Part shown: piece after piece, positions 1,901-6,567 of the stretch
Layout: every line of letters begins with the position of its first letter
Numbering within the stretch: position 1 is the stretch's first letter
Sequence record: PZ379547.1
From: a phage
Direction: 5' to 3' (one strand)
DNA: 38,987 nt
Translations under genes and position numbers: made by a program
Notes under the pieces: generated by a model
What the model saw: the letters and a program-made list of their open reading frames with translations, nothing else
Told to the model about the DNA's origin: nothing
The model's database searches: none

Positions 1901-2407
1901 ATGGAACGTAATGCTAACGCATACTATGAGCTGCTGGCTGCAACCGTTGAGGCATTTATCGAGCGTATTCAGTACGACCACCTGACTCAAGATGACGACT
2001 ACAGCGATGCGCTGCATGAGGTCGTAGACGGTCAGGTTCCTCACTATTACCACGAGATTTTTACGGTGATGGCTGCTGATGGTATAGACAACGAGTTCGA
2101 AGACTCTGGGATGATACCTGAAACCAAGGACGTAACGCGTATCCTACAAGCTCGCATCTATGAGGCACTTTATAACGACGTGTCTAATAGCTTGGATGTA
2201 GTCTGGTTTGAGGATGAAGAGGCAGACGAAGAGGATGAATATTGGGTAGTTGACGCTAAAACAGGCGCAATAATTGTGCAAGCTGTAGCTCTTGAGGTCG
2301 CTACTGCATGTGCCAAGGTTAACTATGCGGCAGGTCGCCACCTGAAGGTGGAAGACATCAATGATAACGTAGTGTTCGACCCTGCGGCTGAGGACTGCGA
2401 GCGATGA
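1901..2407 (+). CDS. ocr: Ocr-like DNA-mimic anti-restriction protein (T7 gene 0.3 homolog) with C-terminal extension, 168 aa
   Basis: [43 protein letters not shown] aligns with recalled T7 Ocr ([43 protein letters not shown]); acidic stretch; GAGAGGA SD 8 nt upstream of ATG. Confidence 0.85.
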
Positions 2408-2589
2408 GCAAGATATACGCAATATACCATGTCGTGCCTAACTCATGGGGAGATAACCACATCATGCAGGAGCCTTGTTATTATGACGAGGATGTGGCAA
2501 AACAGGCACTAGCGGAAGCCCAAGCGGTAGCCAAAGACCCTTGGTCTGGCGTGTACGAGGTCTGCATGGAGGTTATACAAGTTGTCTAA
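2404..2589 (+). CDS. Hypothetical early protein (61 aa)
   Basis: ATGA start/stop overlap with the ocr-like gene; ORF in track; no recognisable motif. Confidence 0.45.
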
Positions 2590-2736
2590 AACTTATGGCC
2601 TCTGCCAGCACCACGTCACTATCGCCCGGCTTATGGTCAAGACCGGGCAGTTAGACCACGATTGGGCTATGCGTCTCTTGAAAGTGGTCTACAGGAGACG
2701 CAAGCGTATGCACGACAGTTTACACGCTAAGTGACA

Positions 2737-2775
2737 GACTACAGGTCATCAATGCTGGTGGCCTGACTGATAGTC
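2737..2775 (+). promoter_or_regulatory. Predicted RNase III-type processing hairpin (site C)
   Basis: gactacaggtcatc ... ggtggcctgactgatagtc; inner stem AGGUCAU/GUGGCCU with G-U pairs. Confidence 0.5.
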
Positions 2776-2797
2776 ATTAACAACTGAGAGGGAAGAT

Positions 2798-3025
2798 ATG
2801 AACACAATCACTGGTGCCATAACCAAAGGTTTTCGAGCAATTTTCGGTGAAACGCAAGAAGTATGCACCAATCATAAATTCGTACTTTCTTGCGTAGCAG
2901 GTGACGAGTTTGACGGGTTCGATAAACTGGTGGTTTGCGACCATTGCGGACAAGAGGCTATCCAACACTCAAACGGTAAATTTGAATTAATAGACGATAG
3001 CCTTACAGAAGGAGACGGCGAGTAA
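2798..3025 (+). CDS. Hypothetical early protein with four Cys (possible zinc ribbon), 75 aa
   Basis: ORF with GAGAGGGA SD; Cys at C-x8-C ... C-x2-C (CTNHKFVLSC ... CDHC). Confidence 0.55.
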   Translation: MNTITGAITKGFRAIFGETQEVCTNHKFVLSCVAGDEFDGFDKLVVCDHCGQEAIQHSNGKFELIDDSLTEGDGE

Positions 3026-3099
3026 CCTAAATAAACAGGAGAGAACCAAATCATAGCTTGACCATAACACTGACGTGATGGTACTGAGTGATAGACGAG

Positions 3100-3123
3100 A
3101 GGTCATCGACTGATAGGTGGCCT
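3100..3123 (+). promoter_or_regulatory. Predicted RNase III-type hairpin (site D)
   Basis: AGGUCAU (3100-3106) pairs with GUGGCCU (3117-3123) via G-U wobbles. Confidence 0.4.
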
Positions 3124-3157
3124 CAAAGATTACCACTTACATTGATAGGAGTTAACT

Positions 3158-3262
3158 ATGAGCACTGCAATCATCTGGACTATCTCAGGCTTCGTAGCGT
3201 GGGGAATGTTTACTCTAGTCTGCAAACTACCGGTCCTTACTCAACTGTTATGGGGCTTATGA
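3158..3262 (+). CDS. Small hydrophobic peptide (34 aa), candidate early membrane protein
   Basis: ATG 3158 with AGGAG 6 nt upstream; MSTAIIWTISGFVAWGMFTLVCKLPVLTQLLWGL; stop TGA 3260-3262 overlaps next ATG (ATGA). Confidence 0.45.
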   Translation: MSTAIIWTISGFVAWGMFTLVCKLPVLTQLLWGL

Positions 3263-3462
3263 CTATGAGTATCGCACTATTGATAGCCATAGGCTATGGA
3301 CTTATCGCCTACGTGCTGGTGAGAGACATCAACAAAGCGCGTAAAGTCTACAAATTCAAATATGTACGTCTGGGTAGCTGGACTGTACGTCAACCTAACG
3401 GACGATTCATGCGCAACTTAGCGAACGTCTGGGATATAGCAACTCTTGGGAGCAAACTGTAA
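3259..3462 (+). CDS. Small membrane protein (67 aa; one predicted TM helix)
   Basis: ATG 3259 coupled to upstream stop; MTMSIALLIAIGYGLIAYVLV hydrophobic segment; the track ORF 3088..3462 starts at GTG inside hairpin D, so the shorter start is preferred. Confidence 0.45.
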   Translation: MTMSIALLIAIGYGLIAYVLVRDINKARKVYKFKYVRLGSWTVRQPNGRFMRNLANVWDIATLGSKL

Positions 3463-3788
3463 TGAACAAGTCATACGGGATTAATCTGGTACACTCTATG
3501 GACGCAGAAATGAACATGTTAAGCCTACTGGCTACCGGGTATCGTCACGGAACGTCAAGTCACACCGCACGTCAACAGCAGGAGCGGGACCGTGTACTAC
3601 AGGCGCGACTCCGGGCAGAGGGCCATAAGTCCGAACTGATGTGTCTGGCGTATGGTGGACGACCAATCACCGACGATGGTAAACTTTTAGTCTCAGGCTG
3701 GAAGGCGATAGACCAACGGTCAACCATCAAGCACACGACCAAAGGTGACTTCAGTCATCTCCACGCTAACCCGCTGATATGCAAGTAA
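3462..3788 (+). CDS. Hypothetical early protein (108 aa)
   Basis: ORF in track; ATG overlaps upstream TAA (TAATG); last gene before the RNA polymerase; not similar to the T7 0.7 kinase. Confidence 0.5.
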   Translation: MNKSYGINLVHSMDAEMNMLSLLATGYRHGTSSHTARQQQERDRVLQARLRAEGHKSELMCLAYGGRPITDDGKLLVSGWKAIDQRSTIKHTTKGDFSHLHANPLICK

Positions 3789-3793
3789 TTCTG

Positions 3794-3816
3794 ACTTAAC
3801 TATCACTATAGGACTC
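3794..3816 (+). promoter_or_regulatory. Phage RNAP promoter directly upstream of the RNA polymerase gene
   Basis: cttaactatcactataggactca matches the promoter consensus; +1 G at 3811, 75 nt before the gene 1 ATG. Confidence 0.7.
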
Positions 3817-3885
3817 AAGGTCTAAGACTCCAAGTGAAAGACCAAAGAGACTTTAAGTGAAAGACTAATAACAAGGACTTTAAGT

Positions 3886-6567
3886 ATGAGCGTCATCTCT
3901 ATTGACAAGCACGACTTCTCTGATGTGTCGAACGCCATTGAGCCGTTTAACCTGCTGGCTGACCACTACGGGCAAGACCTTGCAGTCAAACAGCTTCAGC
4001 TTGAGCATGAGGCATATACAGAAGGCGAGCGACGTTTCATCAAGAACCTTGAGCGGCAGACTGAGCGCGGGGAACTGGCAGACAATCAGGTCGCCAAGCC
4101 TTTGATGCAGACTCTGGTCCCTAAGATTGCGCAAGCCGTCAGGGAGTGGCACGAAGGCCTAGACGGGAAGCTGTCAACCTCGCGTCCTAGCGTAGCGTTC
4201 ACCATGTTGAGCACTGAAGAGAAGGCCGTAAAGGACCGCTCTATGCGCATCTCCTGTGAGTCCGCTGCGGTTATCATACTGAAGGTCGTACTCTCCAAGC
4301 TGGTCAAGCCTGAAGGGATACCGATTACACCGATGGCCTCCGCGATAGGTCGCACACTTGAGGACGAAATCCGCTTCGGTCGCATCCGTGACAAAGAGAA
4401 GGAGCACTTCAAGAAGGCGATAGCTGATAACCTGAACAAGCGAGCTGGGGCATCCTACAAGAAAGCCTACATGCAAGCGGTCGAGGCGTCCATGCTGGAG
4501 CAAGGCCAACTGGAAGATGCATGGGGTACTTGGAGTCCTACAGAGGCTGTACACGTTGGCATCAAGATGCTCGAGATTGTCATCCAGTCAACACAACTGG
4601 TCGAGCTTAAGCGGTACGGTGCTGGTAATGCAGCGGCTGACGTAGAGATGGTCCACCTGTCAGACTTCTGGGTCAAGAAGATGGCACAACGAGGATTCAG
4701 CCTTGCGGGTATCGCTCCAGTCTACCAGCCTTGCGTCGTTCCACCTAAGCCGTGGACTGGTGTCGTAGGTGGTGGGTACTGGGCCAAAGGTCGCAGACCG
4801 TTACCATTGATTCGCTTAGGGTCTAAGTCTGCGGTAGCACGTTATGAAGACGTATACATGCCTGAAGTCTATGACGCTGTGAACATCATTCAGAATACAC
4901 CTTGGAAAGTTAACAAGAAGGTATTGGACGTGGTGAACATGGTCGAGAAGCTGAACAACACGCCTATTAATGACATCCCTCAGATGGAACCGCTGAAGCC
5001 TGAGGACTATGCTGGTGAAACCGAGGAGGAACTCAAGGCATGGAAGAAGGCTGCTGCTGGTATCTATCGCCGCGAGAAGGCCAGACAGTCACGCAGATTG
5101 TCCATGAGTTTCATCGTATCACAGGCCAACAAGTTCTCACAGTTTAAGGCCATCTGGTTCCCGTACAACATGGATTGGCGAGGTCGTGTCTACGCTGTCC
5201 CGATGTTCAACCCTCAGGGTAACGACATGCAGAAGGGGCTCCTGACTCTGGCAGTCGGCAAGCCTATCGGGGCGGATGGTTTCAAATGGCTTAAAGTCCA
5301 CGGTGCAAACTGTGCGGGTGTCGATAAAGTCACCTTCGATGAGCGCATCAAGTGGGTGGAAGACAACCACGAAAACATCATGGCTGCTGCTAAGGCACCG
5401 ATGGATAGTATTGAGTGGTGGGGCAAGTTAGACTCTCCGTTCTGTTTCCTCGCGTTCTGCTTCGAGTATGCTGGCGTAATGCACCACGGCCTGTCTTACT
5501 CCTGCTCGCTGCCGATAGCGTTCGATGGGTCCTGCTCTGGTATTCAGCACTTCAGTGCGATGCTTCGTGACCACATCGGTGGACATGCAGTAAACCTGAC
5601 GCCATCCGGCATGGTACAAGACATCTACCGCATTGTGTCTGACCGCATTGAGGAGGAGCTTAAAGTCCTTCTGATTAACGGTACTGACAACGAGATGGTC
5701 ACTCACGAGGATAAGAAAACTGGTGAGATTACCGAACGTATCAAGCTGGGGACACGAGAGCTGGCCCGTCAGTGGCTGACATACGGTATGTCACGCAAGG
5801 TCACTAAGCGTTCAGTCATGACTCTGGCATACGGGTCGAAAGAGTACGGATTCGCAGACCAAGTTTACGAGGACATCGTGATGCCAGCGATTGACTCAGG
5901 GTCTGGCGCTATGTTCACTGAACCAAGCCAAGCGTCTCGCTTCATGGCAAAGATGATTTGGGAAGCTGTGAGTGTGACAGTAGTTGCTGCGGTTGACGCG
6001 ATGAAGTGGCTTCAAGGTGCTGCCAAGCTGCTGGCTGCTGAGGTGAAGGACAAGAAGACTGGGGAAATCCTGAAGCCTTGCCTTCCGGTACACTGGGTCA
6101 CACCTGATGGGTTCCCGGTCTGGCAGGAATACCGCAAGAAGGATAGCACTCGTCTGAACCTGATGTTCTTAGGGTCCTTCAACCTTCAACCTACGGTCAA
6201 CAAAGGTACGAAGAAAGAGCTGGACAAGCACAAGCAGGAGTCAGGCATTAGCCCTAACTTCGTCCACTCACAAGATGGTAGCCACCTGCGGAAGACTGTA
6301 GTCCACACTCACCGCAAGTATGGCGTGATGTCATTCGCAGTGATTCACGATAGCTTCGGGACCATCCCTGCTGACGCTGAGTATCTGTTCCGTGGTGTCC
6401 GTGAGACGATGGTCGAGACATACCGCGATAACGATGTGCTGCTTGACTTCTACGAGCAGTTTGAATACCAGCTTCATGAAAGCCAGCGCGACAAGTTGCC
6501 TGAGCTTCCGAAGAAAGGTAAACTGAATATCGAAGACATCTTGTCTTCAGACTTTGCATTCGCTTAA
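3886..6567 (+). CDS. gp1: Single-subunit DNA-directed RNA polymerase (T7 gene 1 homolog), 893 aa
   Basis: DGSCSGIQHFSAMLRD, RSVMTLAYGSKEYGF, VIHDSFGTIPADA and C-terminal ...SDFAFA match recalled T7 RNAP motifs. Confidence 0.97.
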   Translation: MSVISIDKHDFSDVSNAIEPFNLLADHYGQDLAVKQLQLEHEAYTEGERRFIKNLERQTERGELADNQVAKPLMQTLVPKIAQAVREWHEGLDGKLSTSRPSVAFTMLSTEEKAVKDRSMRISCESAAVIILKVVLSKLVKPEGIPITPMASAIGRTLEDEIRFGRIRDKEKEHFKKAIADNLNKRAGASYKKAYMQAVEASMLEQGQLEDAWGTWSPTEAVHVGIKMLEIVIQSTQLVELKRYGAGNAAADVEMVHLSDFWVKKMAQRGFSLAGIAPVYQPCVVPPKPWTGVVGGGYWAKGRRPLPLIRLGSKSAVARYEDVYMPEVYDAVNIIQNTPWKVNKKVLDVVNMVEKLNNTPINDIPQMEPLKPEDYAGETEEELKAWKKAAAGIYRREKARQSRRLSMSFIVSQANKFSQFKAIWFPYNMDWRGRVYAVPMFNPQGNDMQKGLLTLAVGKPIGADGFKWLKVHGANCAGVDKVTFDERIKWVEDNHENIMAAAKAPMDSIEWWGKLDSPFCFLAFCFEYAGVMHHGLSYSCSLPIAFDGSCSGIQHFSAMLRDHIGGHAVNLTPSGMVQDIYRIVSDRIEEELKVLLINGTDNEMVTHEDKKTGEITERIKLGTRELARQWLTYGMSRKVTKRSVMTLAYGSKEYGFADQVYEDIVMPAIDSGSGAMFTEPSQASRFMAKMIWEAVSVTVVAAVDAMKWLQGAAKLLAAEVKDKKTGEILKPCLPVHWVTPDGFPVWQEYRKKDSTRLNLMFLGSFNLQPTVNKGTKKELDKHKQESGISPNFVHSQDGSHLRKTVVHTHRKYGVMSFAVIHDSFGTIPADAEYLFRGVRETMVETYRDNDVLLDFYEQFEYQLHESQRDKLPELPKKGKLNIEDILSSDFAFA

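Follow-up and report, generated by a model that had tools for sequence, protein, structure and literature searches.

We analysed a stretch of 38,987 nucleotides of phage DNA (PZ379547.1; hereafter the window) and found that the Ocr protein that it encodes exhibits, in addition to the DNA-mimic domain known from T7, a small C-terminal domain (CTD) of its own. From its sequence and predicted models, the long form of Ocr appears to consist of the Ocr domain, a poly-acidic linker of variable length, a compact and nearly neutral CTD, and an acidic tail. The extension is under purifying selection and evolves faster than the mimic domain. Ocr is the textbook DNA-mimic anti-restriction protein, and the gene described here is already known: phage K1F and dozens of its sequenced relatives carry it as their normal gene 0.3, annotated as Ocr-like. 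We found no description or test of the extra Ocr domain in the full-text literature searched. Within that literature, the discrete, family-less nature of the CTD, its division into three subtypes, its occurrence on Ocr alone and its recurrent loss appear to be undescribed.

The ocr gene and its Ocr-type module

The window is the T7-like genome of a coliphage of the genus Kayfunavirus (K1F-like). Its ocr ORF, read from the sequence and the ORF list, extends from an ATG start to a TGA stop at positions 1901 to 2407 (+ strand) and encodes 168 aa. A Shine-Dalgarno sequence, GAGAGGA (1887-1893, +), was likewise read from the sequence, 7 nt 5' of the ATG, and the TGA shares bases with the start codon of the ORF that follows (ATGA). 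The gene is the first substantial early gene 5' of the phage RNA polymerase gene (3886-6567), and its position matches that of K1F gene 0.3. Its nucleotide sequence is 100% identical to that of Escherichia phage vB_EcoP-22664BS1 (MZ234009) and 97-99% identical to those of many other Kayfunavirus phages. The window gene is one allele of the known long-form Kayfunavirus ocr, from which nothing essential distinguishes it: K1F (67% identity over the CTD), LM33_P1, CLB_P1, SH3 and vB_EcoP-22664BS1 possess the same two-module Ocr, annotated as 'ocr-like anti-restriction'.

An earlier note, made from the letters of the window alone, had described this ORF as an Ocr homolog of which about the first 115 residues resemble T7 Ocr and which continues in a C-terminal extension of about 50 aa. 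Database searches bear out this description. The Pfam family ocr (PF08684) matches residues 8 to 94 with an E-value of 7.3e-29 (100.7 bits, against a cutoff of 25), and PHROG 2568 ('ocr-like anti-restriction') matches the protein with an E-value of 8.5e-53. In a phmmer search, the window Ocr matched PDB entry 1S7Z and 9 others; residues 11 to 116 of T7 Ocr (117 aa) were aligned with window residues 11 to 113 (E-value = 1.3e-24), and all the motifs that the note had quoted are inside this alignment. The two proteins are 59% identical over residues 17 to 94. Since the T7 alignment stops at residue 113, the window residues 114 to 168 (55 aa) are extra; the string quoted earlier for the extension corresponds to residues 116 to 168.

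The Ocr DNA-mimic domain (residues 1-103; positions 1901-2209, +), delimited by the matches to Pfam and PDB 1S7Z, carries a net charge of -17. Residues 1 to 113 together amount to -26 and the full window Ocr to -30, compared with -28 for T7 Ocr, which is likewise strongly acidic and encoded at the same genomic position. AlphaFold2 places the helices of this domain at residues 5-25, 35-68 and 75-95. Direct reading of the alignment reveals that the two dimer-interface residues F54 and A58 are identical in the window Ocr and T7 Ocr, with the same residue numbering (window I53-F54-T55-V56-M57-A58 aligned to T7 I53-F54-S55-V56-M57-A58). In T7 Ocr, the F54D/A58E mutant is monomeric, and the substitution F54V escapes the defence system PARIS (PMC7261183, PMC9122126). 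Also identical in the two proteins are D36, D43, D63, D77 and R80, the residues that form salt bridges to PglX in the T7 Ocr complex (PMC11341690; the numbering of that paper is one lower). The family profile, the T7 alignment, the acidity and the early position all fit, and residues 1 to 113 are, judged in this way, a genuine Ocr. Homology to T7 Ocr strongly suggests that this module (the domain with its linker, residues 104-113) blocks type I restriction-modification (R-M) and BREX. It would form an acidic helical dimer mimicking bent B-form DNA, and would in this form occupy the DNA-binding sites of the type I R-M and BREX methyltransferases.

Structure of the C-terminal extension

T7 Ocr (gp0.3; PDB 1S7Z, 2Y7C, 8Q56 and others) ends in a short disordered acidic tail. 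In the window Ocr, by contrast, this tail is interrupted by a folded, nearly neutral domain of 48 aa. The counterpart of the T7 acidic tail is a poly-acidic linker (residues 104-113; positions 2210-2239, +) with a net charge of -9. It is followed by the CTD proper (residues 114-161; positions 2240-2383, +; net charge -2), for which AlphaFold2 predicts a beta-beta-alpha-beta-beta arrangement, and by an acidic tail, AAEDCER (residues 162-168; positions 2384-2407 including the TGA stop, +), again with a net charge of -2.

Structure prediction of the full protein and of the extension alone had been proposed beforehand as a check on the extension, and with AlphaFold2 it returned a separate, confidently folded domain. 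The mean pLDDT of the CTD modelled alone is 89.6 (pTM 0.72), and its pLDDT within the full-length model is 82-86. The predicted strands comprise residues 114-118, 124-129, 148-152 and 157-159, and the single helix residues 131-143. The buried face of this helix is conserved (L131, A134, A138, Y142) and its exposed face is variable, while hardly any variation is seen among 121 sequences in the hairpin formed by the third and fourth strands, H147..V-E-D-x-N-D-x-V-V-F-D-P.

No part of the protein varies more than the linker: homologs differ in its length, from about 0 to 25 residues, its column entropy (0.90 bits) is the highest of all, and its AlphaFold2 pLDDT falls below 50 at residues 107 to 110. 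The full-length AlphaFold2 model has a low pTM (0.46), though each domain is individually confident. The low full-length pTM, the variable length and the low pLDDT of the linker together fit a flexible tether, and we infer that the CTD is not docked onto the mimic. Nor does the CTD extend the DNA-mimic surface, because it is nearly uncharged. Two putative functional sites in the CTD were considered and rejected. The residues of a possible metal site (C137/H147/C166) are not conserved in other subtypes or in divergent K1F-type members, and an EF-hand-like DxNxN loop is not conserved across subtypes.

Conservation and selection of the extension

A tblastn search with the extension alone found it in frame, within the Ocr coding sequence, in 72 phage records and at identities down to 65%; thus defined, the K1F-type CTD is present in 72 of the 574 phage records in which an Ocr domain was found. 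The long form is the normal gene 0.3 of the type phage K1F (169 aa) and of about 70 other sequenced phages. Among 5.8 billion proteins searched, the two-module architecture recurs in at least 120 clusters (defined at 90% identity; 162-179 aa). We computed dN/dS by the method of Nei and Gojobori for the 45 pairs formed by 10 diverged long-form genes. The ratio for the extension was below 1 in every pair (45/45; median 0.29, maximum 0.79). The Ocr domain, with a median of 0.14, is more constrained, and dN is about 3-fold higher in the extension (0.143) than in the Ocr domain (0.046).

These data bear on the trivial explanation of the extension, also foreseen in the earlier note, that a normal 117-aa ocr gene has been lengthened by a frameshift from sequencing or assembly or by loss of its stop codon. 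Frameshifted versions of ocr do occur in some metagenome assemblies (e.g. P0123). Yet 72 independent phage genomes and at least 120 clusters, at identities as low as about 65%, preserve this reading frame, dN/dS is below 1, and the predicted fold is confident. In-frame conservation and purifying selection exclude such an error, and we give this explanation practically no credence.

Divergent subtypes of the CTD

Two more CTD subtypes were identified at the same place, that is, after W-[FY]-E and an acidic linker. The IME15-type subtype (170-174 aa, 25-30% identity to the window CTD, 9 records) is found in Stenotrophomonas phage IME15, Escherichia phage Ebrios and several Aeromonas phages. The other is that of Kosakonia phage Kc166A (183 aa), which matches the K1F-type profile with an hhalign E-value of 0.002. 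The long Ocr proteins of IME15, Ebrios, Aeromonas phage PZL-Ah1 and Kc166A exhibit the same architecture as the window Ocr and a colinear motif, with a CTD identity of 25-33%. The motif common to the three subtypes, which share 28-33% identity, is W.V..D..G...(S/F)(L/F)E.A...Y..G..VED...V.(F/Y).P. Altogether, the CTD is retained in phages of Escherichia, Salmonella, Citrobacter, Hafnia, Kosakonia, Aeromonas and Stenotrophomonas.

Phages of the IME15/Ebrios type possess a SAM hydrolase, a long Ocr and a gp0.7 kinase together, whereas the window phage has neither the hydrolase nor the kinase. The idea that the CTD stands in for the absent gp0.7 kinase was rejected, as IME15-type phages have both.

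Loss and exchange of the CTD

Short Ocr proteins also occur in Kayfunavirus, with 110 aa (e.g. Vec13) or 114 aa (L014-L018). They correspond to the long form minus the linker end and the CTD, with junctions located in GAGGA repeats, and their ...EEDCE end is common to the long form. In the window, two micro-repeat copies bracket the linker end and the CTD: GAGGAT on the upstream side (2231-2236, +) and GAGGAC on the downstream side (2390-2395, +). The short proteins are 84-88% identical to the long-form N-domain (90-96% in DNA). An in-silico deletion of positions 2236 to 2394 yields a protein of 115 aa that equals the natural short form of L016 (114 aa) except for the final R; the long and short alleles are separated by one clean in-frame deletion.

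Deletion junctions of at least three types were found, and the nearest N-domain relative of every short form is a long form. The presence or absence of the CTD is therefore polyphyletic, and recent deletions best explain both this interleaving and the micro-homology. The original event could have been either an insertion into the ancestral acidic tail or repeated deletion. As a truncated Ocr occurs in viable sister phages, the CTD is dispensable for phage viability as such, and an appendage that is nearly neutral would account for its recurrent loss equally well. Recombination likewise moves the 3' module, as indicated by the near-identical CTDs of K1F and TH20 on diverged N-domains (dS of 0.034 for the CTD and 0.34 for the N-domain). 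In Salmonella phage PRF-SP3, whose Ocr has 127 aa, only the last strand and the tail of the CTD are left (VVFDHAAAEDCE; profile E-value = 0.005).

Several loci exhibit rearranged versions of the gene. The PRF-SP3 Ocr (L005, 504-887) has a main helix with a T7-like end, together with the final strand and the tail of the CTD (SVVFDHAAAEDCE), and is either a mosaic or a deletion remnant. A 57-aa ORF at 2001-2174 of the metagenome locus L091 (P0125; also in L092 and L093) joins MERNTNAYYDL to the latter half of a Kc166A-type CTD. Here, an internal deletion, in frame, has taken out almost all of Ocr; the ORF was seen at the ocr position, 5' of the gp0.4 homolog, in three sequencing samples that are independent of one another. 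In L084 (2167-2680; also L085 and L086; P0123), a frameshift splits a 117-aa Ocr from a 59-aa CTD ORF; the samples are three related ones, and the frameshift may be an assembly error. A deletion in P0099 joins the CTD to the C-terminal end of the gp0.4 homolog. Finally, L056 (906-1328) encodes a 140-aa Ocr in which the acidic tail is replaced by a non-acidic C-terminus; this may be a natural deletion fusion akin to the T7 0.3-0.7 fusion discussed below.

Search for relatives of the CTD

The CTD exhibits no family match in Pfam (E-value up to 10), PHROGs or NCBIfam. The sub-cutoff matches to HTH_64 (E-value = 0.042), DUF6172 (0.18) and LEA_3b (0.022) are far below the cutoff and were dismissed as noise. 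A CTD profile did not match any of the PDB sequences, and Foldseek searches with the predicted CTD against PDB and BFVD gave nothing at an E-value of 0.001 or below. In BFVD, free-standing small phage proteins with a CTD-like topology were found at TM-scores of 0.6-0.78 and E-values of at least 0.02. These could be unrecognised relatives. We treated such fold-level matches as a likeness of simple alpha/beta topology and not as homology. Fold-level scores of the CTD against ClpS and the ribosomal L7/L12 C-terminal domain, T4 Dmd and AcrIF9 are marginal, and a Foldseek search of PDB gave nothing at an E-value below 0.7. A ClpS-like adaptor fold was rejected, there being no sequence relation (hhalign probability of 0.06%); the window CTD is also devoid of the two ClpS helices that form the N-degron pocket.

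When 1.84 billion representative proteins were searched exhaustively by HMMER with the CTD profile, two matches were returned (P0121 and P0122). Both are false positives, long repeat proteins that match only a short VED..D..GYDP-like motif. The profile has 58 positions, and distant free-standing relatives would escape billion-sequence searches. No intact CTD was found outside an Ocr ORF among the six-frame ORFs of 90 loci and the window by a local profile search, nor apart from Ocr in plasmids, phages and IMG/VR, nor in 185,579 species-representative bacterial and archaeal genomes. Word-indexed searches with sequences or alignments of the CTD yielded fragments only; as candidate free-standing CTDs, these were rejected, P0123 being a frameshift split, P0124 a truncated ORF and P0125 an internal deletion. 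The short CTD-like metagenome ORFs are debris of long ocr genes. The exclusive linkage of CTD and Ocr could reflect a young, narrowly distributed domain and not a functional dependence.

Neighbouring genes and early-region elements

Stem-loops precede three early genes of the window, at positions 1496-1556, 1819-1873 and 2730-2782, with the arms AGTGAnTAACTACAGG ... CCTGACTGATAGTCACT (repeat families D1/D3). The second lies just 5' of ocr in the early transcript (1819-1873, +) and has a folding energy of -23.8 kcal/mol (z -4.5, with 0/200 shuffles as stable). By analogy with T7, these elements are probably RNase III processing sites.

Downstream of ocr, a 61-aa ORF (2404-2589, +) corresponds to a rare insertion, about 181 bp long, that separates ocr from the gp0.4 homolog. 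The insertion is present in 2 of 77 related phage records, namely ZCEC02 (99.8%) and HC13 (92.9%), and is absent from MZ234009; in L043, a copy with 55% identity is located behind a short ocr. This ORF has no family match in Pfam, PHROGs or NCBIfam. A link between the CTD and the 61-aa ORF was rejected, the ORF being missing beside an identical ocr and present, at another locus, behind a short one. The end of the 61-aa ORF is overlapped by an ORF of 50 aa that starts with TTG (2582-2734, +) and is a homolog of K1F gp0.35 (PHROG 5058, E-value = 1.8e-23). Its metagenome relatives carry the Pfam label PF26807 (Phage_T7_GP04); gp0.4 of T7 is an inhibitor of FtsZ.

No gp0.7-type protein kinase was found between ocr and the RNA polymerase gene (window 2407-3886), an interval that exhibits only small ORFs of 50-124 aa, assigned to PHROGs of unknown function. 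A 52-nt direct repeat ending in CTTAACTATCACTATAGG (family D4) is present at 151-202 and 3761-3812, the second copy just 5' of the RNA polymerase gene, and looks like a phage RNA polymerase promoter. Short direct repeats (families D2, D10 and D12) form a cluster of the ACCTACAGT type in the leftmost non-coding region (700-1100) and, immediately 5' of the RNA polymerase gene, a pair in tandem, AGACTCCAAGTGAAAGACCAA / AGACTTTAAGTGAAAGACTAA (3825-3868).

Possible roles of the CTD

The earlier note had put forward, as a hypothesis, that the added domain might alter the range of targets or counteract a defence that senses Ocr. A known variant of T7 Ocr provides a comparison. In the 0.3-0.7 fusion (the Studier H1 deletion), as in the long Ocr, a foreign C-terminal domain is attached to Ocr and is gained or lost via short direct repeats. 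The fusion consists of 110 aa of Ocr and 121 aa of gp0.7 and arises spontaneously by slippage between short repeats. It fully keeps its anti-EcoKI activity, its anti-BREX activity is about 10-fold weaker, and growth on BREX+ cells selects variants with a short Ocr restored (PMC7261183). A C-terminal cargo can thus change the potency of Ocr target by target. The last seven residues of T7 Ocr are themselves dispensable for both anti-EcoKI and anti-BREX activity (PMC7261183). The likeness has its limits: the fusion is a laboratory deletion that carries the shut-off domain of gp0.7 and is counter-selected on BREX hosts, whereas the CTD is unrelated in sequence to the gp0.7 part and is kept by selection in nature. 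It has also been reported that PARIS senses Ocr, and that point mutants of Ocr escape PARIS yet block EcoKI (PMC9122126).

By analogy with the fusion, we put at about even the chance that the CTD is an accessory, Ocr-dependent module tuning which defences the mimic blocks or triggers. We favour this interpretation because the CTD is selected, faster-evolving at exposed positions, tethered, exclusive to Ocr and repeatedly discarded. In the mechanism that we propose, the CTD (residues 114-161) would be a second module, inserted in the acidic tail of Ocr on a flexible poly-acidic tether. The C-terminus of T7 Ocr lies far from the dimer interface, so that the CTDs would presumably be located at the two distal tips of the dimer. 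Here, the CTD would act as a protein-interaction module, dependent on Ocr, that changes which host complexes accept or sense the mimic. It may shield Ocr from those abortive-infection sensors that Ocr triggers, PARIS being an example, or may add contacts to a particular target. It would be costly against other targets, as the T7 fusion is against BREX, and this proposed cost would be the reason for its repeated deletion. Taken in a narrower sense, as a counter-counter-defence module at the dimer tips that hides Ocr from PARIS-like sensors or neutralises a further defence, the proposal becomes considerably more tentative.

The CTD may also be an autonomous second inhibitor, directed at another defence or a host function and merely co-translated with Ocr, so that one polypeptide would have two independent activities against the host. 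A domain of this kind should turn up by itself now and then. No collection searched contained an intact CTD that was alone or fused to a non-Ocr protein, and the short ORFs are frameshift or deletion debris only; we find such an inhibitor rather doubtful. Somewhat less probable still is a CTD with no target of its own, serving as a stabilising, solubilising or oligomerising cap or carried as a nearly neutral passenger. Viable sister phages do without the CTD, the last residues of T7 Ocr are dispensable against EcoKI and BREX (PMC7261183), and neither a functional motif nor a family match was found for the CTD, all of which would suit a domain of this sort. Such a domain is harder to reconcile with purifying selection in 45/45 pairs, with a beta3-beta4 hairpin almost invariant across about 120 clusters, and with the retention of the CTD in three divergent subtypes across phages of seven host genera. 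As to a cap, the conservation of F54 and A58 makes an extra oligomerisation device seem unnecessary.

It is very improbable that the CTD lengthens the DNA mimic, although it is attached at the end of the mimic and Ocr is reported not to be long enough to extend into the hinge groove of PglX (PMC11341690). Its net charge is only -2, against -17 for the mimic and -9 for the linker, its predicted fold is globular alpha/beta and not an acidic helical rod, and the linker between the two is disordered and variable in length.

Implications

A naturally occurring, selected domain of Ocr that is repeatedly gained or lost amounts to a ready-made evolutionary experiment on how an anti-defence protein is tuned against sensors and multiple targets. 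The question is directly testable, since T7 without gene 0.3 and EcoKI, BREX and PARIS test strains exist. The role of gene 0.3 is also of practical value, as K1F-like phages serve therapy-oriented work on K1/ExPEC E. coli. Should the CTD prove inert, the finding would shrink to the correct annotation of a known gene. If, on the other hand, the CTD shields Ocr or acts on an extra defence, the long Ocr would be a two-layer anti-immunity protein, and the gain and loss of its CTD would track the defence repertoire of the hosts.
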